The notes under the pieces are model-generated. The model searched no databases, was not told the origin of the DNA, and saw nothing but the letters and a program-made list of their open reading frames with translations. The translations under genes were made by a program, and so were the position numbers. Shown piece by piece: positions 1-16,447 of a DNA stretch of 64,000 nucleotides (positions are counted from its first letter, which is position 1; the number at the start of each line of letters is the position of its first letter). The DNA is taken from the NCBI GenBank assembly GCA_963743565.1, contig CAVUQD010000002.1, positions 113,604-177,603 of the forward strand, written 5' to 3'. The stretch comes from an uncultured Alphaproteobacteria bacterium. Its GTDB lineage: Bacteria; Pseudomonadota; Alphaproteobacteria; Rhizobiales; Beijerinckiaceae.

Positions 1-5
1 ATCGG

Positions 6-896
6 TCATGTCTTCTCCCGTTCTTCGAATGCGGCGTAGGCGGTCTCGAATCGCCGCAGATTCTCTCGCGTATAGGCCTCATAGTCGAAGTCGATCGTCG
101 ACTTGATCTCCGAAACCATGCTCCACAGGGTCTCGCGCAAGAGCGAGGCCGCCACCATCGCCTGCAACCCACGCCGGGTCGCCTCGGTCGGGGGCTCATC
201 GAAATAGTCGGCGAGCATCGCTTCATCCTCTTGCGCGGAGAGACCGTTATTAGAAGACAGACCGCCGAGATCGAAAAACGGCGTACCCCAACCTGCGTAA
301 TCCCAGTCGATGAGCCACAGCCGCTCGCCGTCGTCTATGAAATTCGCCGCGAGAAGATCATTGTGCCCGAAGACGAGGTCGATCGGCCCGAGCGCGCGCT
401 CGAGCTTCTGCGACGCTTCCAGCAATTGCGGGAGCATGGGAGTCCAATCGGATCCCTCCTCGCGCAGCAGATGCGCGTAGTCTCGAATGACGTGGAAGAC
501 GTTGAAGCAAAGCGTTGGACCGCGCAGATGGTTGGGCATCTCTCGATGCGCGCGCTTCACCAGCCCCAGGCAGCGGTGAAGATTCTTGCGAACGTCTTCG
601 GCGTCATAGGTCCGTCCGTGGATATAGTCCATGACGAGAAAGGGCGGCGCCGCGTAAACCAGATGCGGAGAAATCCCCGCCGCGGCCGCGGCCTTGGCGG
701 CCGCCAATTCGTTAAAGCGCATGACCCCGTGATGCGGGATGTCGCCGCCATAGCGCACGACAACTCGACGCCCCCTCTCGCTCACGAGAAAATTCTTATT
801 GGTGATGCCGCCCGACAGAGGCTCGATTTCGACAGGGCCGCTCCAAATCGGGAGCGCACGAATCAGGGATAAAGGATCGGGTGCGTCTGCGGTCAT
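6..896 (-). CDS. Choline/ethanolamine kinase family phosphotransferase
   Basis: 296-aa ORF with LSGGITNKNF N-terminus, HNDLLAANF (Brenner motif) and LIDWDYAG; divergent from eutBC. Confidence 0.85.
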   Translation of the reverse strand: MTADAPDPLSLIRALPIWSGPVEIEPLSGGITNKNFLVSERGRRVVVRYGGDIPHHGVMRFNELAAAKAAAAAGISPHLVYAAPPFLVMDYIHGRTYDAEDVRKNLHRCLGLVKRAHREMPNHLRGPTLCFNVFHVIRDYAHLLREEGSDWTPMLPQLLEASQKLERALGPIDLVFGHNDLLAANFIDDGERLWLIDWDYAGWGTPFFDLGGLSSNNGLSAQEDEAMLADYFDEPPTEATRRGLQAMVAASLLRETLWSMVSEIKSTIDFDYEAYTRENLRRFETAYAAFEEREKT

Positions 897-1003
897 CGCG
901 GCCTGCCCTGCTTGCCAATGCGAAGAACCCTAAGGCCGTGTCACGGAGGTGACAAGCGGGCGGCCGAGCGCTAGTTTCAAGCGCGTCATCGTCTCTGGGT
1001 CGC

Positions 1004-2377
1004 ATGATGTATTCGATCGACCTGCAAGGAACCCGTTACCGGTTCGACGACCTGAAGTCGCTGATGGCGAAGGCGACGCCGCTGCGTTCCGGCGACTGCC
1101 TCGCGGGCGTCGCCTCTGAGAGCGCCGTCGAGCGCGTTGCGGCGCAGATGCGCCTCGCCGATCTTCCGCTCTCGACCTTCCTCGCCGAGCCGCTCATCCC
1201 CTATGAGGACGACGAGGTGACGCGGCTCATTTTCGACACGCATGACAAGCGCGCCTTCGCGCCGATCGCCAGCCTCACCGTCGGAGAGTTCCGCGACTGG
1301 CTGCTCTCCGATTCCGCCACGCGCGAAACGCTCGCTGCCCTCGCGAAGGGGATCACGCCGGAGATGGCGGCCGCGGTTGCGAAGATTTCGCGCAACCAGG
1401 ACCTCATCGCGATTGCTTCAAAAATCCGCGTCGTCACGCGCTTTCGTAACTCGATCGGTCTGCCCGGCACGCTCTCCTCGCGCATTCAGCCCAATCATCC
1501 AACCGACGATCCCAAGGGCGTGCTCGCCAGCATCATCGACGGGCTGCTGCTCGGCGCCGGCGACGCGGTGATCGGAATCAATCCCGCATCCGACAGCCCG
1601 CGACGCTGCGAAGAATTGCTGCTGCTCATCGATGAATTGCGTGAAACCCTGGAGATCCCTACGCAGTCTTGCGTGCTCGCCCATGTCACGACCACGCTGC
1701 CGCTCATCGCGAAAGGCGCGCCCGTCGATCTCGTCTTTCAGTCGATCGCCGGGACCGAAGCCGCGAACCGCAGCTTTGGGGTGGACCTCGCACTGCTGCG
1801 CGAAGCGGACGACGCGGCGCACAATCTGCGACGCGGAACCGTCGGTAATAACGTCATGTATTTCGAAACGGGCCAGGGCAGCGCGCTTTCGGCGGAGGCG
1901 CATCATGGCTGCGATCAGCAGACGCTCGAGGCGCGCGCCTATGCAGTGGCCCGCGCCTTCGATCCGCTGCTCGTCAACACGGTCGTCGGCTTCATCGGAC
2001 CGGAATATCTCTTCGACGGCAAGCAGATCATACGCGCCGGGCTCGAGGATCACTTCTGCGGCAAGCTGATGGGCCTGCCCATGGGGTGCGACGCCTGCTA
2101 CACGAATCACGCCGAAGCCGATCAGAACGACATCGACGATCTTCTCACGCTCCTGGCGGTTGCCGGCGTGAATTATGTGATGGGCGTTCCGGGCGCCGAC
2201 GACGTCATGCTGAATTATCAGAGCACGTCCTATCACGATGTCGCGGCCGTTCGAAAAATTCTTAATCTCTCGCCTGCTCCGGAATTCGCGGAATGGCTTG
2301 CGCGGATGCGCGGCGGCGATCTCACGCAGGCGCAAGCGTTGCCCTCGTCCTTCCAGCGTCTCTTGGCGAAAGTTTGA
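1004..2377 (+). CDS. eutB: Ethanolamine ammonia-lyase large subunit
   Basis: 457 aa; motifs RSGDxLAGVA, QPNHPTDD, MYFETGQGSALS, GLEDHFCGKLMGLPMG. Confidence 0.97.
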   Translation: MMYSIDLQGTRYRFDDLKSLMAKATPLRSGDCLAGVASESAVERVAAQMRLADLPLSTFLAEPLIPYEDDEVTRLIFDTHDKRAFAPIASLTVGEFRDWLLSDSATRETLAALAKGITPEMAAAVAKISRNQDLIAIASKIRVVTRFRNSIGLPGTLSSRIQPNHPTDDPKGVLASIIDGLLLGAGDAVIGINPASDSPRRCEELLLLIDELRETLEIPTQSCVLAHVTTTLPLIAKGAPVDLVFQSIAGTEAANRSFGVDLALLREADDAAHNLRRGTVGNNVMYFETGQGSALSAEAHHGCDQQTLEARAYAVARAFDPLLVNTVVGFIGPEYLFDGKQIIRAGLEDHFCGKLMGLPMGCDACYTNHAEADQNDIDDLLTLLAVAGVNYVMGVPGADDVMLNYQSTSYHDVAAVRKILNLSPAPEFAEWLARMRGGDLTQAQALPSSFQRLLAKV

Positions 2378-2380
2378 AGC

Positions 2381-3151
2381 ATGGCGGAGAAACTGCCGGC
2401 GATTGACGGTTTGGCGGCGCTGAAAGCCTCGACTCCGGCGCGCATCTTTCTGCCGTGCGCGGGCGCGGCGGTCGCGACGGGGGCCAATCTCGCCTTCCAG
2501 CTGGCGCACGCGCAGGCGCGCGACTCGGTCGAGGATCATCTCGACACACAAGCCCTCATGAAAGAACTGCACCAGCGCGGGTGGGAATCCGTGTGCGTCG
2601 AGAGCGCGGCGCCGAACCGGCGCGCCTATCTGATGCGGCCCGATCTCGGACGGCGCCTCGACGATCCCTCGCGCGCGCGTCTCTCAACGCTCGCGGGCGA
2701 TGGCGATATCCTCTTCGTCGTCGCGGACGGCCTGTCCGCACGAGCCGTCACAGCGCATGCGCTACCGCTGCTCGATGCGGCGCTGCCTGCCTTTGGCGCC
2801 GAAGGCTGGAAGATCGGCCCCGTCATCGTCGTTTCTCAGGGCCGCGTGGCGATTGGCGACGAGATTGGCGAGGTCTTGGGCGCAAAGCTCGTCGCCGTTC
2901 TCATTGGAGAGCGGCCCGGTCTCTCCTCGCCCGATAGTCTCGGGGCGTATCTCACTTTCTCCCCGCGCATCGGCCGCACGGACGCCGAGCGCAATTGCCT
3001 GTCGAATATTCGCAGAGAGGGAATGTCCTACGCGGAGGCGGCGGCGCGGTTGCTTTATCTCGCCACCGAAGCGCGTCGGAGGAATTTATCCGGCGTAGAA
3101 CTGAAGGACGAGTTCCAAAGTGCGGCGTCCGCTCGCCTTGTCGCGGGCTGA
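2381..3151 (+). CDS. eutC: Ethanolamine ammonia-lyase small subunit
   Basis: 256 aa; STPARI, AHAQARD, RxAYLMRPDLGRRL, IGERPGLSSPDSLG, DAERNCLSNI; follows eutB. Confidence 0.96.
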   Translation: MAEKLPAIDGLAALKASTPARIFLPCAGAAVATGANLAFQLAHAQARDSVEDHLDTQALMKELHQRGWESVCVESAAPNRRAYLMRPDLGRRLDDPSRARLSTLAGDGDILFVVADGLSARAVTAHALPLLDAALPAFGAEGWKIGPVIVVSQGRVAIGDEIGEVLGAKLVAVLIGERPGLSSPDSLGAYLTFSPRIGRTDAERNCLSNIRREGMSYAEAAARLLYLATEARRRNLSGVELKDEFQSAASARLVAG

Positions 3152-3247: not shown

Positions 3248-3361
3248 TGGCTGCCCTTCCTGGACACGTATCGAACCATGTGCATTGCTCCGGAGCCAAA
3301 TTTCCGTTGCATCTTGGAGGACCTTCGAGTGATGCAGTCCATGGCGTCGGGCATCAGGTAA
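3248..3361 (+). other. Left attachment junction encoding a displaced recombinase C-terminus (WLPFLDTYRTMCIAPEPNFRCILEDLRVMQSMASGIR*)
   Basis: The frame starting at the TGGCTG core is open to TAA at 3359-3361. It begins with the same WL dipeptide at which the recombinase enters the tRNA. WLPFLDTYRT resembles termini recalled for this recombinase family. Confidence 0.7.
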
Positions 3362-3410
3362 CGACCGTTTTCCTAATTCGCGTCTGCTGCGGGATCGCTA
3401 CCGGACTCGC

Positions 3411-4310
3411 TCACCCCTGAACTCGGGCGCAGCGAAAGCCAATATGATTGATGCGTTCGCGCGGAGCGCTCGCGGTCCGGCCGGCCGAGCGGACGCCCGA
3501 CGCGTAGTCGGCCCAGGAACCCCCGCGCAAGACGCGCCCTCCAGCCCCATCGTTCAGCCAGACGGAGCCGTCTGCCGGGGCGCCGACATAGTCAGGGTGA
3601 TCGGGATCTTCGACCCATTCCCAGACGTTTCCAAGCATGTCCTGAAGGCCCCAGGGATTCGCCCGCTTGCGCTTCACGCGCCGAGTTCCCGCGCTTTGAT
3701 GCGCGTATTGCTTTCCGGACCAAGACGAGCTGTCCCAGAGCGCCCCGAGATCGTAATCCCTGCCACTGTTGCCTCCGTACCAAGCGATCGGGTCGAGGAT
3801 CGGCGCGTTGTTCAGTCCCAGAATCTCCAGATCGCCCGCGTATGTCGCCGCCGTAGTCCCGGCCCGGCAGGCGTATTCCCATTGCGCCTCGCTCGGCAGG
3901 GAGAGGCCGAGACCGGGAACGAGCGCGTTCACCTTGCTGATAAACGCTTGCGCGTCGTCCCACGAAACTCTTTCGACCGGGCGATCAGGGCTTTGAAAAT
4001 CGCTTGGATTGTTCCCCATCACCGCGCTCCAGAGTGCTTGCGTGCATGGGGTCTCGAACATCCAGAACCCTCGCGCGATCGTCACCTCATGCTGCGGGCC
4101 TTCGTTCTTGGCCCGCCCCGCCTCCGACTCTGGCGATCCCATTAGGAAGTTGCCCGGCGGAATCCAGCGTAAGAGCTGATTGGCGTCCTGAACCGCGAAG
4201 CCAAGAAACAGGCCGTGACTATCCTGCCCCCATTCGCTGGCCCAATCGGGCGGAGCACCCTCGATCAGCCGCCGCCGCTCACTAAGAAGGTCGACCGCAA
4301 GTGCTCTCAT
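3411..4310 (-). CDS. Stand-alone FGE-sulfatase (SUMF1-like, C-type lectin fold) domain protein; DGR-target-like
   Basis: RWIPPGNFLMGSP, LPSEAQWEYACRAG, NPWGLQDMLGNVWEW, RVLRGGSW...IGFRCAR; ATG at 4310 preferred over the longer ORF start at 4385. Confidence 0.9.
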   Translation of the reverse strand: MRALAVDLLSERRRLIEGAPPDWASEWGQDSHGLFLGFAVQDANQLLRWIPPGNFLMGSPESEAGRAKNEGPQHEVTIARGFWMFETPCTQALWSAVMGNNPSDFQSPDRPVERVSWDDAQAFISKVNALVPGLGLSLPSEAQWEYACRAGTTAATYAGDLEILGLNNAPILDPIAWYGGNSGRDYDLGALWDSSSWSGKQYAHQSAGTRRVKRKRANPWGLQDMLGNVWEWVEDPDHPDYVGAPADGSVWLNDGAGGRVLRGGSWADYASGVRSAGRTASAPRERINHIGFRCARVQG

Positions 4311-4659
4311 CCTTGTGTGCCCCGAATGCTGACGTGAAAAAGCGCGCCGGCGAGCCTTGGAGGAGGCTTCGCCCGTTTCTAGCACGCCGACGGCCCTTCG
4401 TTTTCGCCATTCGGAACATCGAGAACTCGTCTTGGGGGAAAATCTCTCCGTAGGCGATCTTGCCGCAGTTTATCGACGCCGGCCGGCTTTCTGCGTTCTG
4501 TTCCAGATAAGTGACGCAGAGCGCCCAGAAGCTCGTCTGCCCGTCCTGAACGAAATTCTTCTCGACCGAGACGATCTTGTGGCTGGTCAAGAGCTGGTTC
4601 AACGTCGCGCTGGCCTCGTCGTCGCCTCGACAAGAGCAGGCGAAGACTTTCACGCGCAT
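4282..4659 (-). pseudogene. Truncated N-terminal half of the HRDC-domain accessory protein typical of DGR cassettes
   Basis: ATG 4659 with GGAGG RBS. MRVKVF...HKIVSVEKNFVQDGQTSFWALCVTYLE...KIAYGEIFPQDEFSMF resembles recalled DGR-associated HRDC proteins; similarity stops near 4410, before the HRDC domain. Confidence 0.6.
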
Positions 4660-4766
4660 CCTCCTGCCTCCTCTCGCGCTCTCGCGTGGTCGGCCCCGCC
4701 AGCGACCCACCGACGCAGGCGGTCGGCTCGCTCCGCTCGAACTCGCCGCGTCCCTCCCGGCTCCCC

Positions 4767-7700
4767 TCACTCCTGAACTCGGGCGCAGCGAAAGCCGATA
4801 ATGTCGGCGCGCACGTCCGGAGCGTACGCGCTCCGGTGCGCGGAGCGGACGTTCCGCGCGTCGAGGCCCCAGGAACCGCCGCGCAAGACGCGCAAAGCAG
4901 CCATAGCTGCTTGCGATGCTCCAGCCTCTACATCCGATCTGCTCCCCAAGCGAAGCAACTGTTTTGCCGCGTCGAGCAATCCCGCGCGCCGGACGGAGCC
5001 GCGCCAAGGCCTGCCGTCGCTGGGCGCCGCCTCATAGTCGCCGTGCCAATCGTCCGCGCACCATTCCCAGACATTTCCGTGCATTTCGTAAAGACCCCAG
5101 AGGTTAGGCGGCAGGCTCGCCACGGGAGCCGTCTCCTTGCGATAAAGCACTTTGGTCGCGTCGTCGTAAGGGTAGTTGCCATCGTAATTGACGAGCTCGG
5201 GCGTAATGTTCTCGCCGAAGCTGAACGGCGTCGTCGTCCCCGCCCGGCAGGCGTATTCCCACTGCGCCTCGCTGGGCAAAGAAAGACCGAGATCGGGAAT
5301 GAGCGCATTGATCTTGTCCAGGAACTGCTGCGCGTCGTCCCATGAGACTTGCTCGACGGGGCGGTCGGGGGCCTGAAACCGACTCGGATTTGTGCCCATC
5401 ACGGCCGTCCACAAGGCCTGAGAACAGGCCGTGTCGAAGAGCCAGAAGCCCTGTGCGATCGTGATCTCGTGCCGGGGACCCTCCGAAGTCAAACGCCCCC
5501 GCTCGGTCTCCGGCGAGCCCATCAGGAACCGCCCGGGATTGATCCAGCGCAGCTTCTGGCGCACGGGGTCTGCTGCGCCCGGCGCCTCGATCCCGGCCCA
5601 CAGGCCGAAGCGATCGCGCCCTATCGCTGACGCCCATTTCGGGCGCGCCAGGGGCTCGACCGTCAGGCGCTCACAGTCGCTGCGAATGACGAAGGACCCG
5701 GCGCGCGGAAAAATCGCGGCGCCCTCGCCGCCGACGAATAGCCGCGCGCGCTCGCCGCCGCCGGACGGCGCCGCTGCGGTCGGCCTCGCTCCGCTCCGCT
5801 GAACTCGCCGCGTCTCCGCCGGCTCCGCGCCGTCCTGAACTCGGGCGCAGCGAAAGCCGACATACTGGTTTTCCTCCTGCCGCTTGTATTGATACCGGGA
5901 CGCCGCACGGACGGCGTGCGCGCTGCTCTCCCAAGAACCGCCGCGCACGACACGCCCGACAGCCTTATTTGCGTCATCCCAAACTGAACCGTCGTTCGGC
6001 GCGCCTCGGTAGCCCCGATGCCAAGCGTCGGCGCACCACTCCCAAACATTGCCGTGCATCTCGTAGAGGCCCCAGGCATTGGCTGGAAGACTTCCGACAG
6101 GGACACGCCGCTGACGCCAACGTCCCTTAAACTCTTGATACTGAAAATCATCACCGAAGTAATTCACCTGATCCACAGTGACGGTCTCGCCAAAGCTGAA
6201 CGGTGTCGTCGTCCCAGCCCGGCAGGCGTATTCCCACTGAGCCTCGCTCGGGAGGGTGAGGCTGAGCCCGGGAATGAGGGCGTTGATCTTGTCGATGAAC
6301 TCCTGTGCGTGGTCCAAAGAGACGCGGACAACAGGCTCGGCGGCGGCGCCTGACCATCGCCACTCCCTCATCACCGCCTCCCAAAGGACGTTAGGGCATA
6401 CCGTGTCAAACAGCCAGAAACCCCTTGAGATGTTTACTTTGTGCCGTGGACCTTCGTTGGCGTCCCGCCCCTTCTCGTTGTTCGGCGACCCCATCATGAA
6501 CGTGCCCGGCGGGATCCACCGCAAGCGCTGCTTCACAAAGCCGTCCCGGCCTTCGATAGCGAATTCAAACCAGGGTCCAATCTTGTCGCAGCCGAAATCG
6601 CTGACGAAGGGAGGGACGGCGCCGTCCTTCCAGAAAGGCGGCGAATCGAGCGCGAAATCATCTTCGCGCGCCGTGATCCCGCAGACGAGGCTGCCATGAG
6701 ACAGGGCTTCGCTCGCGAAGGCGCGCAGCCGACCGCCCAGCTGACGGATCATGAAGCGTCGCGGCGGACGATCCGATGACGTCACTCGGGTCGCCACATA
6801 ACCCGGCGGCGCGGCGGGGTCGTCTCCGCGCGCCGAGCGCCAGAGCGACATGAAGGCGCGGCGCTCGGCGGCCTCGTCTGGCGTCCAGTCTTCCCAGCGC
6901 TCCAGCGGCAAACGGTGCGTCAAGCCCCAGAACCAGCCCATCTCGCCCGCCGACGCCTTCTCGGCCTCCGCAGCTTCCGCCAGCGCGAGGAAGTCCTCAG
7001 CAAGGCTCCGGCGGACGCGCGCGGGAACCAGAACCCGCGAGGATGCTGGGAGACTGCGGCATTCCTCCGCAAACACCCAGCGCATCCCGTCGCGCCAGGA
7101 ATGGCGCGGGGGATGGAAACGCCATCGATAGATCAGCTTCAGGACATCACGACGTTCCTCTGGAGCGAGCGTGGCGAACTCCTTGAGCAGCGCCTCGCGC
7201 GCGGCGACGTCGGGCGTCGCGCCGATCGGATGGCGTCGCGCCACCGCGGCGTCCTGCCAAAATAGCCCTTCGAGCCCCGGGTCGGCCCTTCCGCCAAGCA
7301 GCCAACGCAGCCCGCGGAGCAGCCCGGGCTCGATGCTGAGCGCGGGCGAGGCCAGGACCTGCAGCTGCCGCAGCCTCTTCTCGCGCTCCTCCAGCGTTAT
7401 CGGCTCGCCAATCCGGCGCCAGCCGATGAGGGACCACACCCTTGAGAGCTGCGCCACGGCGCGCAAGGGCGCCGCGGGCAGCACGGCGACCCCGCGCCCG
7501 CCGACGCGGCGCAAGCGCTCGCCATACTCGGCCCAGGCCCGCAACTCTTCGCCCTCCGGCTCTGAGAGCAGTCCGAGATCACTGAAAACGACGACGGTCG
7601 CGCCCGAGGGCGGCGGCGCCTGGTCGCGCCAATCGACGGGGATCACCCCGCCCTGCGGAAACAGCCGTTTCAGATCGTGATAGAGCGCCAGATAATCCTC

Positions 7701-8249
7701 GCGATAAGGGGTCAGACGCTCGCTCTTGTCGAAGAGCAGCAGCAACTCTCCACCCCAGCGGCGACGCTTCCGGCGCGGCCATCGCTTGAGTGGGATGCCG
7801 TCCGCAATCCGCCGCAGCGCCGCGTCCACGTCGAGGTCCTGTCCATCCCGCTGCCGCGCCGCCGCGCCGCGCAACAGCGCCGCCACATCCGCGAAGGATC
7901 CGAGCGGCGGGATGGGCGGCGGCGCGTCCCAACCGTCATCTTCCGGTGTGGAGGCGGCTTCCTCCAGCCAACGCGTCGCCTCGGTCTCCTGTTGCCCGGC
8001 CTTTTCAGCGACGTCGCCTTCATAAGCGACAACGCGCCAGAACAACGGCTCCTCGGCCTGGGGCTCCGACGGCGGCGGCGGCGGAGGAGGAGGAGGCGGG
8101 GGCGTCTGGAGCGGCTGCGCGGGCGGCTTTGACGGGCGAAGTTCGTAGCCGAGGAACTCCGCGACCTCGAGCTGGCGCCCGTGCGTCAGCGCCCTGAGCA
8201 GATCGGCGCGCCCTCCGATCGAGCGCCTGCAGATTGCCTCACGCGACAT
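4767..8249 (-). CDS. MoxR-associated vWA-like protein with poly-Pro linker and two C-terminal FGE-sulfatase domains
   Basis: 1160 aa; PPPPPPPPPP linker; vWA-like LLLLFDKSE and VVVFSDLG (degenerate MIDAS); two complete FGE domains each ending RGGSW...GFRCARVQ. Confidence 0.85.
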   Translation of the reverse strand: MSREAICRRSIGGRADLLRALTHGRQLEVAEFLGYELRPSKPPAQPLQTPPPPPPPPPPPSEPQAEEPLFWRVVAYEGDVAEKAGQQETEATRWLEEAASTPEDDGWDAPPPIPPLGSFADVAALLRGAAARQRDGQDLDVDAALRRIADGIPLKRWPRRKRRRWGGELLLLFDKSERLTPYREDYLALYHDLKRLFPQGGVIPVDWRDQAPPPSGATVVVFSDLGLLSEPEGEELRAWAEYGERLRRVGGRGVAVLPAAPLRAVAQLSRVWSLIGWRRIGEPITLEEREKRLRQLQVLASPALSIEPGLLRGLRWLLGGRADPGLEGLFWQDAAVARRHPIGATPDVAAREALLKEFATLAPEERRDVLKLIYRWRFHPPRHSWRDGMRWVFAEECRSLPASSRVLVPARVRRSLAEDFLALAEAAEAEKASAGEMGWFWGLTHRLPLERWEDWTPDEAAERRAFMSLWRSARGDDPAAPPGYVATRVTSSDRPPRRFMIRQLGGRLRAFASEALSHGSLVCGITAREDDFALDSPPFWKDGAVPPFVSDFGCDKIGPWFEFAIEGRDGFVKQRLRWIPPGTFMMGSPNNEKGRDANEGPRHKVNISRGFWLFDTVCPNVLWEAVMREWRWSGAAAEPVVRVSLDHAQEFIDKINALIPGLSLTLPSEAQWEYACRAGTTTPFSFGETVTVDQVNYFGDDFQYQEFKGRWRQRRVPVGSLPANAWGLYEMHGNVWEWCADAWHRGYRGAPNDGSVWDDANKAVGRVVRGGSWESSAHAVRAASRYQYKRQEENQYVGFRCARVQDGAEPAETRRVQRSGARPTAAAPSGGGERARLFVGGEGAAIFPRAGSFVIRSDCERLTVEPLARPKWASAIGRDRFGLWAGIEAPGAADPVRQKLRWINPGRFLMGSPETERGRLTSEGPRHEITIAQGFWLFDTACSQALWTAVMGTNPSRFQAPDRPVEQVSWDDAQQFLDKINALIPDLGLSLPSEAQWEYACRAGTTTPFSFGENITPELVNYDGNYPYDDATKVLYRKETAPVASLPPNLWGLYEMHGNVWEWCADDWHGDYEAAPSDGRPWRGSVRRAGLLDAAKQLLRLGSRSDVEAGASQAAMAALRVLRGGSWGLDARNVRSAHRSAYAPDVRADIIGFRCARVQE

Positions 8250-9205
8250 GCTTCTTCAGCACGAATTCACGCACGGTCTTGAGCGCGTCCCGCTGCGCCG
8301 TCGGCTCGCCCTCATGCTGATGCGCCACGACGCGCAGCAAATCGAGATATTCGGCTTGACCGGGGCGCGGGCGCAGGTCTCCATGCGCAGTTCGATCCTC
8401 GAACACCATTTCCGCAGCGAGGCTTAGCGTTTCCCCGTCGCAGTTCGGGAAATGCGCCTTTCCACGCTGCACGAGCAAATCCATCAGTCTTGCCCTGTCG
8501 TCTGGCAGCGTCAGCGCCAGCACCAGGCAGCGGCGCAGAAAGGCGTCCGGCAGCGTACAGTTCTTCGTTTGTGGTGATCACGACGAGCGGCGCGGGTTCT
8601 TTCGCGTTGACGACGCCGCAGCCCGGCGGCGCGATCCGGCCAGAGCCGAGCGCCTCAAGGAGTCCGTTGGGGACCTCCGCCTCCGCCTTGTCGATCTCGT
8701 CGATCAGGACGACGGAACCGTTGTCGGGATCGGCTTCCGCGCCACGCTCCGGGACATCCGTGCGGACGCGCGCGCGCGCGCTCGCCGCCGCTTGACGCTC
8801 CGCGCTGGGCCAGTCGAAGCCCCACCACAGCGGCCCGGGAACGACGAATTTTTCGATCGCGAAATCGGCGCGCGCGTCCTCGACCGATTTGTCGCGCAGC
8901 GCGCCGGCGAGTTGCGCCTCGGCGAGACGCCCTAGGGAATCGAGCCGCCAAAGGAGATCACGCGACTCGGTTTGGCTGTCGACCACTTGCTGAATGAACG
9001 TTCGCTTCAGCATCTTGGCCGCGGCGCGCGCCAACTGGCTCTTCCCGATCCCCGGTTCCCCGCGAACGAGCAGCGGCCGGCCCGCGGCTAAGGCCGCATT
9101 CAGCGCGCGCACCTCGCGCTCGTCGAAGAGATGCACCTGATCGGCGATGGCGCCATGCGGCTCGAGATCGGCACGAAGCCCTGGAGTGTAACTAATGAAC
9201 TTCAT
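8239..9205 (-). pseudogene. MoxR-family AAA+ ATPase with a +1 frameshift near 8559
   Basis: Walker A GEPGIGKS, Walker B VLIDEIDKA. Deleting one base at 8559 restores ITTNEERTLPDAFLRRCLVL and joins the 8312-9205 and 8239-8523 ORFs. A sequencing error cannot be excluded. Confidence 0.85.
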
Positions 9206-10590
9206 TTGGTGAGTTCACCGTCGTGAAGCATGTCAAGAACCGCCCACAGCACATTCAATTCGTTTTTTGCTGCATCGCGTCCGTCGTCGAGCGAGAAAAA
9301 GGCGATTTCCGGATAGGCGGCCTTCGCCTTGTCGATCGCGGCGTCGACGTCGCGCTTGTATTCTTCGTACCAGAAAACGTTCCTATTCATGCGTTGTCCA
9401 ATCGCGATTTCCCACTCCGGCGCATTGACGACGAAATAGTAGCGAGTCTTCTTTGTCCTCAGATTTTTCTGCAGACGCTCGCGCGCGCGTTTCCGTCTTT
9501 CCTCCGGCGCCAGAACTTCCTCGCCGAGCAACAGCAGCTTGGAAAAAACAAATTCGTCCAGCAGTTCCGTGAAGCGATCGAAAGTGGCTGGACCGCAGGC
9601 TGGCGGAAGTTGATAGGCGAACTCGCCATGCGGGCGCTGCGGCCTTACTGCGCCGCCGCCCAGCCGAGCGAAAGCGGGCGAACGTCCGAGCAGCCGAGCT
9701 TCCACTAGCTCCGCACCGGTCACGCTCTGCGCCGGAATCGGCACGACGACGGCCGCGCCGTCGCGCGCTTGTTCACGAATCTCCTCTATTTCCTCAGGCT
9801 CGTAAATCAGCAGGACGAATTCTCGAGTCGCGAGCTTGACCGCCCGCGCCCCAGCTGCATCATCGAGAACCGGACCTGACAATTCCGTATGGGCCTCAGC
9901 GAGCTTTTCGAGAGCCGTTTCCACATCCAGGCTCGCCAGCTCGTCGAAGACGACTCCACTACGGCGGCGAAGATCCGGTTCTGCGGAGGGCTTACTGAGC
10001 AGCTTCTCGATTTGGCCGACTGCCGCCGGCCATTTTGCGAGCGCCGCCGCGAAACGCTCCCGGATCGCGGCTTTCTCTTTCTCCGCCTTCTGCGCCGCCA
10101 GCGCCCGCTTCGCCGCGTCGTCTTCCGACGTTTGCGAGGGCAACTCCCGCGTCTGCTCAAGGCCGTAGAGGCGCCGGTAGCGCTCCTCAATCAGCCCGGC
10201 GATTTCCACGGCCTTGCGATTCGTGACGAGAGGAAAAACGTCCTGCTCACGGCCCTCGGGAACCTGCGTCATGTCGAAGCGAAATGGCAAGACTTGCTCG
10301 GATTGCTGCAGGAATAAGCGTTCGCGGATCACGCGTGCCTCGACGCGGGTCCAATTCTTCTCAAGATAGACCTTGGAGAAAAAGGGTACAACAAGTTCCG
10401 CCATGGAGTAGATATTCTGCAGCTTCAAATCAGAGTTGTAGCCGATCACCTCACCTTCGTGCCAGTTGTCATAAAAAATGCGCTCCTTATCGAAGCTCGC
10501 CAGCAAGGCCTCCGCGACCTTCTCGACATACGCACGATTCTCGCCTGCGAAAGAGAGGGCGACTGCGAAACGACGAGGCGTCAGCGTCAT
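9202..10590 (-). CDS. TIR-domain protein with an uncharacterised helical C-terminal region
   Basis: FAVALSFAGENRAYVEKVAEAL...IFYD...YLEKNWTRVEAR is a bacterial TIR (TIR_2) signature; ATG 10590; ATGA overlap with moxR. Confidence 0.85.
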   Translation of the reverse strand: MTLTPRRFAVALSFAGENRAYVEKVAEALLASFDKERIFYDNWHEGEVIGYNSDLKLQNIYSMAELVVPFFSKVYLEKNWTRVEARVIRERLFLQQSEQVLPFRFDMTQVPEGREQDVFPLVTNRKAVEIAGLIEERYRRLYGLEQTRELPSQTSEDDAAKRALAAQKAEKEKAAIRERFAAALAKWPAAVGQIEKLLSKPSAEPDLRRRSGVVFDELASLDVETALEKLAEAHTELSGPVLDDAAGARAVKLATREFVLLIYEPEEIEEIREQARDGAAVVVPIPAQSVTGAELVEARLLGRSPAFARLGGGAVRPQRPHGEFAYQLPPACGPATFDRFTELLDEFVFSKLLLLGEEVLAPEERRKRARERLQKNLRTKKTRYYFVVNAPEWEIAIGQRMNRNVFWYEEYKRDVDAAIDKAKAAYPEIAFFSLDDGRDAAKNELNVLWAVLDMLHDGELTK

Positions 10591-10949
10591 TAGCACGCCC
10601 CCACCGGCCCTGCCGCCGCCTTGAATCCCTCCCGTCGACGCTCGGTGACGGCGGCGATCTTGCCGCTGAACTGCCCGCGGCCAGGGGCCTTCAAAAGAAA
10701 GAAGCTCTTCATCCAGCATTACCGACAATGGCATCTGGCGTCTACATAGCATGGCGTCGGGACTAATGCATTCCCGCGCGGTGCGCGGACAGCACGGCCT
10801 TTTTCCGGCCTGTCCGGGGCCGCCGGCAACGCCATCGGATAGCCGATCTTCGCGGGCGTCAGGTTCAGCGATCTGCACGGCCAAAAGGACATTGCGATCG
10901 GCGGCTTGTAAGGCTTGGCTCCATGTGTCGTCGACTGTTTAGCTCCCAG

Positions 10950-10992
10950 TTGACAGGCGGCCTCGAATCAGGCTGTAATGTATCCACTAAAC
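10950..10992 (+). promoter_or_regulatory. Sigma70-type promoter of the XRE gene overlapping a degenerate operator
   Basis: TTGACA (10950-10955), 18-nt spacer, TGTAAT (10974-10979); GTAATGTATCCACTAAAC matches 13/18 of the palindrome at 14794. Confidence 0.55.
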
Positions 10993-11011
10993 AAGAAACA
11001 AGGGAGAGGAC

Positions 11012-11359
11012 ATGGGAGACGAAAAGTTTGGTGCATTCGTGCGCCAGAGACGGGAGGAAAAGAAGATCGGCTTGCGGGAGATGGCGAAAAAGATCGGGGT
11101 GAGCCCGACCTACCTCTCGAAGGTCGAGCGCGACGAGTTCACGCCGCCAACGGAGGACAAGGTCTGCGCGATTGCGCAAATCATCGAGTGCGACCCGGAT
11201 GAATTGCTGGCGATGGCCGGGCGCGTGCCATCCGATCTCGCGGAAATCATCAAGCGCCGTCCGGTCGAGCTGGCGGCGCTCTTACGCACCACCAAGGGCC
11301 TGTCTGCGGATGACATCACGCGGCTCGCGCGACAGGCAGAGAAGGCAAAAGCCCGGTAA
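11012..11359 (+). CDS. XRE-family HTH transcriptional regulator
   Basis: FGAFVRQRREEKKIGLREMAKKIGVSPTYLSKVER; RBS GGAGAGG. Confidence 0.92.
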   Translation: MGDEKFGAFVRQRREEKKIGLREMAKKIGVSPTYLSKVERDEFTPPTEDKVCAIAQIIECDPDELLAMAGRVPSDLAEIIKRRPVELAALLRTTKGLSADDITRLARQAEKAKAR

Positions 11360-11406
11360 CCTCGTAACCCAGGCACATAGATGCAGATGAAAGGATCAAG
11401 ACGTAG

Positions 11407-11658
11407 ATGTCGAGAAAAATTCCTTACGTGACGGAGGAGCAGATCGAGCGCGACGCCGCCGCGCTTCTCGCCGAATACGAGCAGACTAGCGGTGTGAGGA
11501 TCCTCAGGGCCGTGCCGATCGAGGACATCGTCGAAAAGCATATCAAGCTCGGCCTGGAGTTCGATGACATGCATCGGTTGTTGAACTGTCCCCGCTCGGG
11601 GCCCGGTCGAGATCCCGACATTCTCGGCGCGATCTTCTTCGACGAGAAGCGCATCGTA
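11407..11658 (+). pseudogene. ImmA/IrrE-family metallopeptidase, 5' fragment truncated by IS21
   Basis: EEQIERDAAALL...VPIEDIVE...ILGAIFFDEKRIV lies directly after the XRE gene; the frame is cut at the IS end before any HExxH motif. Confidence 0.7.
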
Positions 11659-11761
11659 TGTTGATTTCCATTGAGAGCTGACCCGGGCAGCAGGGGTTTT
11701 TCCACCGAGAACTGACCCATGTTCGAACCCTTCCCCCACGGGCATCGCGGGGGAGCATGGA

Positions 11762-13300
11762 GTGATCGACATGGAGTTATTGAGCGTCATCCGACGCTGG
11801 CGACATCGGCAACATCTCTCGATCCGGGAGATCGCGCGACGAACGGGGCTGTCGCGGAACACGGTACGCAAGTATCTGCGCTCGGACAGCGTTGAGCCGA
11901 AGTTCAACATCCCTGACCGCCCGAGCAAGCTGGATCCCTACGCTGACAAGCTGGCGCAGATGTTGCGGTTGGAGGCGGCGAAGTCGCGCAAGCAGAAGCG
12001 GACGGTCAAGCAGTTGCACGCCGATTTGGTCGCCCTCGGCTACGACGGCTCCTACAATCGCGTGGCGGCCTTCGCGCGCGAGTGGAAGGCGGCGCGGCAT
12101 CGGGAGCAACAGACCTGTGGCCGCGGCGCTTTCGTGCCGCTGGCGTTTCTGCCCGGCGAGGCGTTCCAGTTCGACTGGTCGGAGGACTGGGCGGTCATCG
12201 CGGGCGAGCGGATCAAACTGCAGGTCGCCCAGTTCAAGCTCTCCTACAGTCGCGCGTTCATCCTGCGGGCTTACCCGCAGCAGACGCATGAGATGCTGTT
12301 TGACGCCCACAACCACGCCTTCCGCGTGCTGGGCGGCGTGCCGCGGCGCGGGATCTACGACAACATGCGCACCGCCGTCGACAAGGTCGGGCGCGGCAAG
12401 GAGCGGCAAGTCAACGCGCGTTTCGCGGCCATGGTCAGCCACTTCCTGTTCGAGGCCGAGTTCTGCAACCCAGCCTCTGGCTGGGAGAAAGGGCAGATCG
12501 AGAAGAACGTGCAGGACGCGCGGCACAGGCTCTGGCAGCCGACGCCGAACTTTCCTTCCCTGGCGGCGCTGAACGACTGGCTGGAGACGCGATGCCGGGA
12601 GCTATGGGCCGAGATTCCGCATGGCGCGCAGGCGGGCACGGTCGCCGACGCCTGGAGCGAGGAAGCGCAACACTTGATGCAGCTTCCCCGCCCCTTCGAC
12701 GGCTTCGTCGAACACACCAAGCGCGTCTCGCCGACATGTCTCATCCACCTGGAGCGCAATCGCTACAGCGTCCCGGCCTCGTTCGCCAATCGCCCCGTCA
12801 GCGTGCGGGTCTATCCTGAACGCATCGTCGTGGCCGCCGAGGGGCAGGTTGTCTGCGAGCATCGGCGCGTCTTCGCCCGCTCCCACGATCGCAAGAGCGC
12901 GACGATCTACGACTGGCGCCACTATCTCGCGGTCATCCAGCGCAAACCCGGCGCCTTGCGCAACGGCGCGCCCTTCGCCGAACTGCCGCCCGCCTTCCGG
13001 GCCTTGCAACAGCGCATACTCAAGACGCCAGGCGGCGACCGCGAGATGGTCGAGATCCTCGCCCTGGTCCTCCAGCACGACGAGCAGGCCGTGCTCGCCG
13101 CCGTCGAACTGGCGTTGGAGGCGGGCGCGCCGACCAAGACGCATATCCTGAACGTGCTGCACCGGCTGGTCGATGGAAAACCGATCGACGCGCCGCCAGT
13201 GAAGCCGCCCAGCGCGCTGACGCTCACCACCGAACCGCAGGCCAATGTCGAGCGCTATGACGCCCTGCGCAAAGCCCGGGAGGCGCGCCATGCGTCATAA
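11762..13300 (+). CDS. istA: IS21 transposase IstA
   Basis: N-terminal [27 protein letters not shown] (DDE triad). Confidence 0.95.
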
Positions 13301-14084
13301 TCCCGCCGCCGGCGCCATCGTCATCATGCTGCGCAGCCTCAAAATGCACGGCATGGCGCAAGCCGTCGGCGAACTCACCGAGCAAGGCGCTCCGGCCTTC
13401 GAGGCCGCGCTGCCGATCTTGTCGCAGCTTCTGAAGGCGGAAACAGCCGATCGGGAAGTCAGATCCACCGCCTACCAGCTCAAGGCCGCGCGCTTTCCAA
13501 ACTATCGCGATCTCGCCGGCTTCGACTTCGCCAGCAGCGAGGTCAATGAAGCTCTCGTTCGCCAGCTTCACCGCTGCGAGTTCCTGGAGGATGCCCATAA
13601 CGTTGTCTTGGTCGGCGGCCCCGGAACGGGCAAGACGCATCTCGCCACGGCGATCGGCGTCCAGGCCATCGAGCATCACCGCAAGCGCGTCCGGTTCTTC
13701 TCCACCGTCGAACTCGTCAACGCGCTCGAGCAGGAAAAGCTTCAAGGAAAAGCCGGGCAGATTGCGGCGCGGCTCACACACGCCGATCTCGTCATCCTCG
13801 ACGAGCTCGGCTATCTGCCGTTCAGCGCCTCCGGCGGCGCCTTGCTCTTCCACCTGCTGAGCAAGCTCTACGAACGCACCAGCGTCATCATCACGACCAA
13901 CCTCGGCTTCGGCGAATGGGCCGCCGTGTTCGGCGACGCGAAAATGACGACGGCGCTCCTCGACCGCCTCACCCACCGCTGCCACATCCTCGAGACCGGA
14001 AACGACAGCTTCCGCTTCAAGGACAGCTCGGCGAAAGCCGCTAAACCCACAAAGGAGAAAACCCGCAACTTGACGAACGCCTGA
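13290..14084 (+). CDS. istB: IS21 helper ATPase IstB
   Basis: [32 protein letters not shown]; ATG 13290 overlaps the istA end. Confidence 0.95.
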
Positions 14085-14155
14085 CCCTCAAACCATCATC
14101 AACCCGGGTCAGTTCTCAATGGAAATCCCGGGTCAAATCTCGGCGGAAATCGACA

Positions 14156-14767
14156 GGCTGCCAGCTTTTCCGAGTGCGCCTGTTGGGAGAGGGCCTATCA
14201 ACAGAACAGCTTGCTGCAAACCCGATACTCGAACTGGGAGCACCACCGAGAGACAAAGCACGCGCTGGCCGAATGAATGTGGAGTTCATTCCAATTCTAT
14301 ACGCCACGTTCAGCGAACAAACCGCGATTGCTGAAGGCCGCCCTAGCCTAGATGACGAGATCGCAATAGCTACCTTCACAACACTTTACGATCTCAAAGT
14401 TTTTGATTTTACTGTATTTTCTGCAGCGCTTGGCAAAAACTTTGAGGCCGCCATCGAACACACGCGCTATGATTTTATCGAACAGTTGGAACAGGAAATT
14501 AGCAAGCCTGTTCGAGCCTCGGATAAAGTCCGCCAATATATTCCGACTCAAATCGTTGCTGAGTACATACGAGAGCGATTCAACTGTGACGGGATTATAT
14601 ATAGATCATCAATGATCAAAGACCGCTCACTCGACGCGAGGAATATTGCGTTGTTCGACAAGCGCCGACCTTTTCTCGGTGGCACAGAAGCCTCTCTCAG
14701 CTTCGTCAATTACGTTATCAAGGAGGTCTGGGACGTCAAATACGTGGTCGGCAAGTCGCCCTTTTAA
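14156..14767 (+). pseudogene. RES-domain (NAD+-targeting toxin family) protein, 5'-truncated by IS21
   Basis: Frame is open right up to the IS end (GCQLFRVRL); RMNVEFIPILYAT..TAIAEGRP, PTQIVAEYIR..DGIIYRSS are RES motifs; AT-rich. Confidence 0.75.
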
Positions 14768-14779
14768 GCGGGAGAGCCA

Positions 14780-14811
14780 TTGCGATCGACGACGTTTAGT
14801 ATATACTAAAC
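14780..14811 (+). promoter_or_regulatory. Recombinase promoter with a perfect 18-bp palindromic operator
   Basis: TTGCGA (14780-14785), 16 nt, TATACT (14802-14807); palindrome GTTTAGTATATACTAAAC at 14794-14811; ATG 7 nt after the -10 element. Confidence 0.65.
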
Positions 14812-14813
14812 AC

Positions 14814-16406
14814 ATGAAGACATCCGTCAAGCAAGGCCGCGCCGTTGATCTCGCCCGTAAACAGGCGGTGGTCTATGCCCGCGTCTCCTCCAAGGAGCAG
14901 GAGAAGGAAGGCTTCTCAATCCCGGCGCAGTTGAAGTTGCTGAAGGAATACGCCACCGCAAACGGCTTCGTGGTCGCCGAGGAATATGTGGACGTGGAGA
15001 CCGCCAAGCAGACGGGCCGCGCCGCCTTCGGCGAGATGGTGGTCTATCTCAAGGCGCATCCCTCAGTCCGCGTGATGCTGGTCGAGAAGACAGACCGGCT
15101 TTACCGAAACCTCAAGGATTGGGTGACGATCGACGAACTCGATGTGGAGATCCACTTCCCCAAGGAAGGCGTGGTGCTCTCGCGCAATTCGCGCTCCTCG
15201 GAAAAGTTCATGCACGGCATCAAGGTGCTGATGGCGAAGAACTACATCGACAATCTGTCCGAGGAAGCCCGCAAAGGCATGCAGGAAAAGGCCGAGCAAG
15301 GCATCTGGCCCACCAAGACGCCGCTCGGCTATCGCAACGTCACGGGATCGGACGGCAAGAAGGTCATCGAAGCCGACCCGGAGGTCGCCCCGCTCATCAC
15401 GAAGCTCTTCGAATGGTATGCGACCGGACAGCATTCGCTGCAGACCGCGGCGGCCAAAGCGCGAGCCGCCGGTCTCGCGCACCGAAGGAGCGGCACGCGG
15501 GTGCCCGTGAGCACGATTCACACGATCCTGCGCAACCGGCTTTACACGGGCTGGTTCGAGTGGAACGGCAAGCTCTATCGCGGAAAGCACGACGTCTTGG
15601 TCTCGGTCGAGCTTTGGGAGCGCGTGCAGGGCGTGCTGGATGGACGCCACGCCAGTAAAAACCGCCGCATGACGCACGACTTCGCCTTCTCGGGCCTGAT
15701 CGCCTGCGCAAAGTGCGGCTGCTCGGTGGTTGGGGAGATCAAGAAGCAGCAATACGTCTATTATCACTGCACGGGGTACGCCGATAAGTGCCGGGACGAG
15801 CCCGCTTCCTGTCGCCGCAAATATGTTCGCGAAGAGGTTTTGGAGCGGCAGTTCACGGAACTGCTTGGCCGGCTGCGCTTCGACGACGAGGTGCTCGAAT
15901 GGGTGCGCGAGGCGCTGCACGCCAGCCGCGCGGATGAGCGCAGAGAGCATGAGGACGCGATCAAGCGCCTGCGCGGGGAATACGACCGCCTGCAAGCTCG
16001 GATCGACGCGATGTATATCGACAAGCTGGACGGCAGGATCGGCGGCGACTTCTTCGACCGCATGGCAGGACAGTGGCGCGAGGAGCAGAGCCGCTGCCTG
16101 CGCGAGATCGAGCGCTGCCAGGAGGCCGAGCAGTCTTACATGGACGAGGGCGTGCGGCTTCTCGAACTCGCTCAAAACGCCCAAGCCCTGTTCGAACGTC
16201 AGCCGCCACGCGAAAAGCGGCGACTTCTCGATTTCGTGCTTTCGAACTGCTCATGGGAGGATGGCGAAGTGGTCGCCACCTTCCGCCAACCCTTTGATCT
16301 GTTAGCGCAAACGACGGCAGCAGCAGCGCGATGGGAGGCAACGGGAAGCGGAATTTCGATGAAAAGCGAGATTTGGCTGGGGGACCTGGATTCGAACCAA
16401 GATTAA
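14814..16406 (+). CDS. Large serine recombinase (resolvase + recombinase + zinc-ribbon domains)
   Basis: AVVYARVSSKEQ catalytic motif, EKTDRLYR, FSGLIACAKCG, YYHC; last codons overlap the tRNA-Gln 3' end. Confidence 0.95.
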   Translation: MKTSVKQGRAVDLARKQAVVYARVSSKEQEKEGFSIPAQLKLLKEYATANGFVVAEEYVDVETAKQTGRAAFGEMVVYLKAHPSVRVMLVEKTDRLYRNLKDWVTIDELDVEIHFPKEGVVLSRNSRSSEKFMHGIKVLMAKNYIDNLSEEARKGMQEKAEQGIWPTKTPLGYRNVTGSDGKKVIEADPEVAPLITKLFEWYATGQHSLQTAAAKARAAGLAHRRSGTRVPVSTIHTILRNRLYTGWFEWNGKLYRGKHDVLVSVELWERVQGVLDGRHASKNRRMTHDFAFSGLIACAKCGCSVVGEIKKQQYVYYHCTGYADKCRDEPASCRRKYVREEVLERQFTELLGRLRFDDEVLEWVREALHASRADERREHEDAIKRLRGEYDRLQARIDAMYIDKLDGRIGGDFFDRMAGQWREEQSRCLREIERCQEAEQSYMDEGVRLLELAQNAQALFERQPPREKRRLLDFVLSNCSWEDGEVVATFRQPFDLLAQTTAAAARWEATGSGISMKSEIWLGDLDSNQD

Positions 16407-16447
16407 CGGAGTCAGAGTCCGCTGTTCTACCGTTGAACTATCCCCCA
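16374..16447 (-). tRNA. tRNA-Gln (anticodon CTG)
   Basis: 74 nt; acceptor stem TGGGGGA/TCCCCCA, anticodon arm GCGGA CT CTG AC TCCGT, GGTTCGAATCC T-arm, encoded CCA. Confidence 0.97.

Follow-up and report, generated by a model that had tools for sequence, protein, structure and literature searches.

A large serine recombinase element at a tRNA-Gln 3' end whose integration probably exchanges the C-terminus of its own recombinase

The closest analogue of the locus described here is the integration-dependent immunity of mycobacteriophage BPs. In this phage, attP lies inside the open reading frame (ORF) of the repressor, and upon integration the repressor loses 33 C-terminal residues that bear an ssrA-like tag; the BPs integrase likewise has a C-terminal proteolysis signal (PMC4557955). 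Here we analyze a 64-kb stretch of DNA from an uncultured alphaproteobacterium (the window, taken at its full length), which holds an integrated mobile element of ~13.1 kb whose large serine recombinase gene runs into a tRNA-Gln gene. As in BPs, Brujita, and Charlie (Clusters G, I, N, and P; Broussard et al. 2013; PMC4557955), attP would lie in an ORF that encodes two isoforms according to the state of the element. In those phages, however, the repressor is split and the integrase is a tyrosine recombinase, whereas here the large serine integrase itself is altered, its tail being replaced by antisense-tRNA codons. The likeness to an ssrA tag is seen here at the level of sequence, and proteolysis of the free-form enzyme is a proposal. 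The repressor of the Cluster G, I, N, and P mycobacteriophages is the sole experimentally established parallel that we found.

Other described systems share individual features with this element. The SSV1-type fusellovirus integrases (PMC8371274) also carry attP in the integrase gene, target tRNA genes, and have their gene partitioned, but they are archaeal tyrosine recombinases whose gene is disrupted into two large pieces, whereas here 31–35 codons are exchanged and the domains are kept. Tyrosine-integrase tRNA islands (P4-like; Islander, PMC4383910) similarly target the 3' part of a tRNA gene and restore the tRNA; they use another enzyme family, and the duplication at the present site is merely 5–6 bp. 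Like ICEBs1-type ImmR/ImmA elements, this family places an XRE regulator and an ImmA-like metallopeptidase by the att site and has a probable operator before the integrase gene. Unlike ICEBs1, it carries no conjugation genes; its backbone consists of a primase and a 650-aa protein of unknown family, accompanied by defense cargo, and its regulation is putative. With phiC31, Bxb1, A118/LI, TP901-1, and SPbeta SprA the recombinase shares the Resolvase, Recombinase, and zinc-ribbon domains, a putative long helical insert, a short core, and a 5-bp motif shift, from which it is set apart by a tRNA CCA-end target, a single conserved attB arm, and only remote sequence similarity. To our knowledge, canonical large serine integrases have attP outside the integrase ORF and target protein genes or intergenic DNA. 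Searches of the literature outside subscription journals turned up no serine integrase described as having attP in its own ORF at a tRNA end.

We consider it likely, with a probability of roughly 0.8, that positions 3248–16379 are an element placed at the 3' end of tRNA-Gln(CTG) by its own serine recombinase, with attP inside the recombinase ORF, and that the tail of the enzyme was swapped in the process. The attP core TGGCT(G) would lie 31–35 codons ahead of the stop. Integration would detach these last codons to the far end of the island, while the ORF runs on into the antisense strand of the tRNA; excision would rejoin ...IWL-PFLDTYRTMC..., restoring a protein of 557 aa here and of 551–553 aa in relatives. 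Because the crossover falls inside the ORF, it would be the tailed isoform that integrates the element and the tail-less one that excises it, barring carry-over of protein between the two states. The features that define the two junctions are as follows.

3248–16379: integrated mobile element, ~13.1 kb
3248–3253, + strand: far-end junction core TGGCTG, the left island boundary, with the crossover inside the block
3248–3361, + strand: detached recombinase 3' end, WL plus a 35-aa tail and a stop, translated as WLPFLDTYRTMCIAPEPNFRCILEDLRVMQSMASGIR
3254–3283, + strand: P' arm of attP, with CCTGGA at 3259–3264 and TCGAACCA at 3271–3278
14814–16406, + strand: large serine recombinase, integrated isoform, 530 aa (ATG at 14814, TAA at 16404–16406; Resolvase, Recombinase, and Zn_ribbon_recom domains)
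16374–16379, + strand: recombinase-side junction core TGGCTG, read as Trp-Leu, antisense of A72-G73-C-C-A of the tRNA plus one base
16374–16447, − strand: intact tRNA-Gln(CTG) called by ARAGORN, forming the B' arm of attB
16385–16390 and 16392–16399, + strand: B' arm motifs CCTGGA and TCGAACCA in the tRNA, by sequence match to the far-end junction

The recombinase is a serine integrase by its domains. Its catalytic domain (PF00239, E 1.2e-21, residues 18–164) bears the motif YARVSSKEQ and is joined by Recombinase (PF07508, E 1.1e-14) and zinc beta-ribbon (PF13408, E 9e-12) domains; the domain search gave serine-recombinase domains only, with no tyrosine recombinase domain in this protein. A remote match connects it to the C-terminal domain of A118 integrase (4KIS, E 5e-7; 4KIS/6DNW). 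The protein ends ...MKSEIWL-GDLDSNQD, in which residues 1–522 are encoded by the element and the last 8 residues and the stop by the antisense of tRNA-Gln, the sole tRNA that ARAGORN, the tRNA finder used, reports in the window. Taking the reverse complement of the tRNA 3' end yields the last 11 codons, TGG CTG GGG GAC CTG GAT TCG AAC CAA GAT TAA, and TGG thereby serves at once as a Trp codon and as the antisense of the CCA end. A preliminary description of this DNA had proposed that the integrated recombinase ends ...SEIWL-GDLDSNQD by way of the tRNA-Gln 3' end, and the ORF and tRNA calls bear this out. When the window is compared with the related genome G019, homology to this tRNA starts exactly at the core, 16374–16379.

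At the other end of the island, the frame beginning at the core opens WL-PFLDTYRTMC..., and in the free form it would join the recombinase in frame at codon 522. The coordinates agree with the proposal that the far-end TGGCTG opens a WL-tail and that both junctions share CCTGGA and TCGAACCA. In the 64-kb window, the composite motif TGGCTG-N5-CCTGGA is confined to the two junctions, with one occurrence at each, and has no match among 100 dinucleotide-preserving shuffles. Genome-wide, this family is represented by a single recombinase and a single tail, which stand in direct orientation with 13.1 kb between them. The rejoined ORF would be 557 aa long compared with 530 aa for the integrated form, the gain of 27 aa that the preliminary description had assigned to the attP form, and homologs in one piece carry the same tail. 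The description had also allowed that the tail might not be related to recombinase C-termini; in alignment it is homologous to those of the one-piece proteins P0005, P0023, P0028, P0062, and P0070, although the end of the window tail, ..MQSMASGIR, departs from the family end, ..LxLAA. In an intact carrier, the joint of the predicted circle would read ...GAGATT-TGGCTG-CCGTTCCTG.

Homologs of the recombinase display both predicted C-termini. A search with the joined protein returned thousands of matches, of which we examined the best 120 (74–89% identical). All of them share ...(E)IWL and then diverge at once. About 100 of the 120 go on as antisense-tRNA peptides (GD, GDLDSNQD, and GN, each followed by a stop, PGPDSNQRP.., and RPRQDSNLRP...), with tRNA-derived tails ranging in length from GD to ~90 aa. 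Twelve (~10%; 11 full-length and 1 frameshifted) instead end PFLxTYRTMCxAPxPxFRRVLExIRELxLAA, which is the tail found at the far end in the window. These one-piece homologs are 551–553 aa long, with free-form tails of 31–35 residues.

Among the remaining homologs, P0014, P0019, and P0041 have other tails that are not derived from a tRNA. In P0010 (664 aa, on a 58.8-kb ENA contig), ...EIWL-RLPDSKTGHK... runs into a phage-integrase PF00589 domain, and this element appears to have integrated in a tyrosine integrase gene instead of a tRNA.

The contigs that encode one-piece proteins indicate a circular form. On the 15.5-kb L029 contig, which encodes P0005, the N-terminus of hsdR lies at one end and its C-terminus at the other, so L029 is a circular permutation; it reads cargo, recombinase, attP, XRE, ImmA-like, DUF5659, two small ORFs, primase, and 650-aa protein. 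The L290 and L291 contigs, which encode P0034 and come from two samples, are 100% identical in two circularly permuted blocks, giving a circle of 18,674 bp. The longer of the two (18,801 bp) is this circle plus exactly 127 bp; a terminal overlap of such size is usual for circular de Bruijn contigs. Apart from certain short fragments and the 132-kb contig that carries P0070, most one-piece contigs are ~15–19 kb, the size of the element. No close relative was present among PLSDB plasmids or INPHARED phages, and IMG/VR held integrated-type relatives only (55–58% identity).

These circles bear on the possibility that the tail is essential for catalysis or synapsis, so that an integrated element would be locked in unless a helper supplied the enzyme. 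SSV-type archaeal integrases split their own gene at tRNA genes (PMC8371274), and the free form is rare in genomes, as such a lock would have it. Yet only the last 31 residues are lost, behind a variable low-complexity linker; far-end tails remain intact and selected in many hosts, which would require frequent returns to the free form; and free circular forms were recovered from several samples. We regard inactivation of this kind as improbable.

Three integrated islands in other genomes have the same architecture.

G304: island of 17.8 kb at tRNA-Gln(CTG)
G217: island of 15.9 kb at tRNA-Gln(CTG)
G089: island of 17 kb at tRNA-Asn(GTT)

In each, the recombinase adjoins the tRNA, and the far end of the island carries an intact detached tail ORF that points the same way; the genes are collinear with those of L029, with breakpoints at TGGCTS. 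Two homology blocks of L029 and G304 meet within 9 bp that contain TGGCTG. As a DNA pattern, the P' arm matched 81 sites among species-representative genomes and, in JGI metagenome contigs, at least 120 stretches; we analyzed ~150 far-end junctions (80 from genomes and 72 from JGI metagenome contigs). Strains of Nitrobacter, Mesorhizobium, Amaricoccus, and Aurantimonas and one of the Kordiimonadales are among the cultured carriers, with Nitrobacter vulgaris DSM 10236 and Mesorhizobium wenxiniae WYCCWR 10195 as examples. Across these junctions, conservation begins exactly at TGGCT, and the 40 nt upstream hold ~0 bits, indicating that the element boundary is exactly at the core and that the attB arm outside the tRNA is unconstrained.

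Some far-end tails (L098, L119, L130 in G043 C17, L212, L239, and others) are preceded by the last 20–30 recombinase codons (..AKSEI|WL..), with stops upstream. Such remnants may derive from free-form copies that have decayed or from tandem integration in an occupied site.

The shared boundary speaks directly to the suggestion that there is no att junction at 3248 at all, the common motifs being chance or tRNA debris and the true boundary lying elsewhere. In its favor are the failure to find an empty site and a left flank that is rearranged in comparison with G019. Against it stand the lack of the composite motif in all 100 shuffles, the homology of the tail to one-piece proteins, the ~150 independent far-end junctions with the same boundary, and the collinearity of islands with circular forms. 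It is hardly credible on this evidence.

The att sites resemble those of serine integrases in the spacing of one motif. The block of identity between attP and attB is only TGGCT(S), 5–6 bp. Counting from the T of TGGCTG, CCTG occupies positions 12–15 in both the tRNA and P' arms, while TCGAAC spans +19 to +24 of the tRNA arm but +24 to +29 of P'. Likewise, TCGAACCA starts 18 bases past the first core base in the tRNA arm and 23 in P', 5 bp further out, so the zinc-ribbon motif of the attP arm is displaced outward by 5 bp. A shift of this size and direction in attP arms has reportedly been described for the A118/LI integrase by Rutherford and Van Duyne (2013). The P' arm, with the family consensus CCSTTCCTGNAYACNTATCGAACCATGTGC, lies in the region that codes for the tail, where it would mimic the T-arm 5 bp further out as in the serine-integrase att model. 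No significant dyad symmetry was detected among five attP sequences. These sites suggest that the target may be recognized through the tRNA half of attB alone, that is, through acceptor and T-arm DNA.

The same arrangement extends to distant lineages. A search of the whole library gave 2,764 clusters at E ≤1e-30, marking the recombinase family as old and widespread, and we inspected the 150 best representatives of these clusters (32–92% identity, mostly 36–52%). Antisense-tRNA tails of the form W-x5-(S/L)N are present in 61 of the 150. Seven others, in lineages at most 52% identical, have clear free-form tails that keep W-x7-R-T; three of these seven end in Ala-Ala and one in Ala-Gly, whereas none of the 61 tRNA-type tails ends in Ala-Ala.

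We examined tail codons 13–33, which lie beyond the att arm and outside the search pattern, for signs of selection. In this segment pN/pS is 0.44 in frame compared with 1.19 and 1.73 in the other frames, and entropy is 0.88, 0.63, and 1.58 bits at codon positions 1, 2, and 3, respectively. The stop is at codon 34 in 54 of the 81 genomic tails. Of 53 unique tails, 52 have a hydrophobic residue at position 31, 46 an Ala at position 32, and 44 an Ala at position 33; 38 (72%) end in [LFIVS]-Ala-Ala, and 22 of them in LAA, like the ssrA degradation tag. For comparison, 0.4% of ORFs of at least 300 aa in the genome of the window have a hydrophobic-Ala-Ala end. By these codon-level measures, the tail past the att arm is a protein segment under purifying selection, and it probably forms an amphipathic helix that ends in hydrophobic-Ala-Ala. 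Because the tail is detached in nearly all sampled genomes, selection can act on it only in the whole gene, which argues for regular passage through the free state. Tail codons 3–12 are constrained as DNA too: TAT CGA ACC, codons expected to be rare in high-GC genomes, spells the T-arm mimic.

What the tail does is a more tentative matter. By analogy with BPs, it may act as a ClpXP-type degradation signal that keeps the free-form enzyme short-lived and is removed upon integration, to which we give a little under an even chance. The preliminary description had offered the tail swap as a switch for either directionality or stability; the conserved hydrophobic-Ala-Ala end speaks for the second of these. 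Conservation of residues 19–30 in the manner of a helix suggests more than a bare degradation signal. Another role for the tail, or none, is a distinct possibility, and control of directionality by the tail is unlikely.

An alternative account holds that the C-terminal swap is a neutral by-product of an att site that overlaps the 3' end of a gene, the tail being an ordinary C-terminus. All recognized domains end before residue ~495 and are retained in both isoforms, tRNA-derived tails are free in length and sequence, which suggests tolerance, and tail ends are altered in the window copy and in P0034. A neutral C-terminus would nevertheless have to accommodate a pN/pS of 0.44, a fixed stop, and 72% hydrophobic-Ala-Ala ends in a segment that is detached in ~99% of genomic copies, as well as the persistence of the ORF–att site overlap in lineages with identity as low as 36–52%. 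We think this account somewhat unlikely, though a serious contender.

Directionality has to be judged together with the condition of the window's own copy, whose regulatory and decayed parts are listed here.

11012–11359, + strand: XRE-family repressor (HTH_31, HTH_3), 77% identical to the XRE after attP in L029
11407–11664, + strand: ImmA-like (Peptidase_M78) gene, N-terminal 78–85 codons, truncated by IS21
11659–14155, + strand: IS21-family element with 25–29-nt terminal inverted repeats
11762–13300, + strand: istA
13245–14084, + strand: istB
14174–14767, + strand: RES-domain ORF right after the IS21 end, with no Xre-type partner upstream
14795–14810, + strand: palindrome TTTAGTATATACTAAA (TTTAG-N6-CTAAA), which ends 3 nt before the recombinase ATG and overlaps a −10-like box

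Only the recombinase, the XRE gene, and 78 ImmA codons are left of the backbone, the ImmA-like remnant being 59% identical to residues 1–78 of the 255-aa L029 protein. Other members also have DUF5659, small-ORF, primase, and 650-aa genes, all of which this copy lacks. The IS21 element shows no visible target-site duplication, which points to an adjacent deletion of backbone genes (the replication module). The RES-domain ORF is possibly truncated or orphaned, and the window copy as a whole is decayed and probably no longer autonomous. Intact relatives have three conserved small ORFs after XRE and ImmA (an 88-aa DUF5659 protein and proteins of 73 and 81 aa), which are candidate directionality factors. 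The earlier remark that no directionality factor is evident in the island holds for this copy; as an argument it is weak, because the copy lacks such a factor through decay, a property of the remnant and not of the family.

A built-in directionality switch would make the tail an integration-only lock, with the tail-less isoform recombining attL and attR without a separate factor. That excision falls to the tail-less isoform and integration to the tailed one is a logical necessity, the window island has no obvious directionality-factor gene, and the directionality of phiC31 integrase is set by a coiled-coil motif of its C-terminal domain. Intact relatives, however, keep three small ORFs by XRE and ImmA as possible directionality factors, and their absence from the window is explained by the IS21-associated deletion. 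Constitutive excision would also destabilize integration unless tightly repressed. An AlphaFold model of the one-piece homolog P0005, built on a 36-sequence alignment, is of low quality (pLDDT 61, with 25–54 in the tail; pTM 0.31); it contains long helices at 358–462, in part with pLDDT 86–90, at a putative coiled-coil insertion, and lends the switch no structural support. We consider such a switch quite unlikely.

Expression of the recombinase is probably under XRE/ImmA control, as indicated by the conserved palindrome together with half-sites at the XRE promoter. The palindrome upstream of the recombinase is kept in L029, L288, L289, and L291 and is a probable XRE operator; half-sites GTTTAG (10936–10941) and CTAAAC (10987–10992) flank the XRE promoter, which has TTGACA at 10950–10955. 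The recombinase mRNA may be nearly leaderless.

Several observations weigh against integration at the tRNA with exchange of the recombinase tail, or against the role proposed for that tail. An empty site with the left flank of the window was not found among 40 relatives, in metagenomes, or by exact-protein look-ups, and the left flank, a eut block, is syntenic in no relative. The free form is rare: one of the 81 genome tails (L084) has a recombinase upstream, as do none of the 72 JGI metagenome tails by tblastn. Tandem arrays instead of circles could yield one-piece forms, as the contig sequences would look alike at the joint, and, as sequence in the non-tRNA arm of attB is unconstrained, a site that is already occupied might be reused. 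The Ala-Ala end is missing from the window tail and likewise from further copies in which cargo follows the tail (P0034, for example), and tail residues 13–30 seem more conserved than a bare degradation signal needs. Finally, the P0005 model is too poor to say anything on docking of the tail.

The searches for an empty site covered both flanks. Neither eutC-flank nor tRNA-flank searches revealed a genome among the 40 relatives in which eutC adjoins tRNA-Gln, and an exact search of metagenome contigs with the predicted attB 30-mer gave 0 matches. Exact look-up of the EutC protein led to one further sample, which is island-occupied as well, and look-up of the right-flank protein returned no record. 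G019 shares the tRNA and the right flank with the window; its left flank differs, and its eut block is at another locus.

More broadly, these elements may represent a superfamily of serine integrases, as yet undescribed, that act at tRNA CCA ends and sense their integration state through the overlap of stop-proximal codons with attP, a proposal that we advance tentatively. The enzyme of a free element would be tailed, with a degradation signal or some other form of regulation, and that of an integrated element tail-less, so that the product of the reaction rewrites its own enzyme. If the difference between the isoforms is functional, this would be a feedback loop in which recombination edits the recombinase gene, a protein-encoded memory of the free or integrated state. 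The family is large and apparently undescribed; its architecture is well supported and its function is a proposed one.

Use of tRNA genes by a serine integrase would draw on the near-universal T-arm sequence in the tRNA half of attB and on a core of 5–6 bp, and this combination would account for the spread over tRNA-Gln(CTG), tRNA-Gln(TTG), tRNA-Asn, and other tRNAs. If it is true, the superfamily proposal contradicts the view of tRNA targeting as a trait of tyrosine integrases. The family also bears on island-finding software, which presumes that islands at tRNA sites have tyrosine integrases and long repeats of tRNA fragments. For integrase bioprospecting, the protein annotated from an integrated form would differ from the enzyme that performs integration. 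The elements are also widespread carriers of restriction-modification and defense-like cargo in Alphaproteobacteria.

The cargo of the window copy lies in one operon, as follows.

3411–10884, − strand: cargo operon between the tail stop and the XRE promoter, ~7.6 kb
9202–10884, − strand: TIR_2 protein
8312–9205, − strand: AAA_5 (MoxR-like) ATPase
4767–8249, − strand: 1160-aa protein with two FGE-sulfatase domains
3411–4385, − strand: 324-aa FGE-sulfatase protein

PADLOC gave no match for any of these four genes, and the TIR/AAA_5/FGE-sulfatase operon looks like an uncharacterized conflict or defense system. In relatives the tail stop is followed by backbone sequence; in the window this sequence restarts at ~10925, and the interval between the tail stop and the XRE promoter is a cargo hotspot, in which the P0034 element (L290/L291) has a DUF3800 gene.

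The flanks show rearrangements of their own. The eutB/eutC block (window 1–3118; G000 C2:111172–116718) is a 5.5-kb unit, which in G019 lies between REP-like repeats of ~115 bp that occur in dozens of copies in that genome. Homology to all relatives ends ~30 bp before the eutC stop, 130 bp to the left of the att core. In L027 (G019 C1:1686000–1704000), synteny ~9 kb beyond the 3' side of tRNA-Gln continues with G000 C2:236224 onward; this implies that ~106 kb are inverted in one species relative to the other and that the inversion has one endpoint at or close to the tRNA/att site. Congeners and other members of the order have 45–55-bp direct repeats of the tRNA-Gln 3' end 11–17 kb from the full gene (G022 C6:1722246–1738332, G005 C14:205272–216586, G026 C1:1509064–1520936, and G031 C1:958892–975876). 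Such partial repeats are the classic mark of tyrosine-integrase islands at this tRNA, whereas the element in the window has a core of 6 bp.

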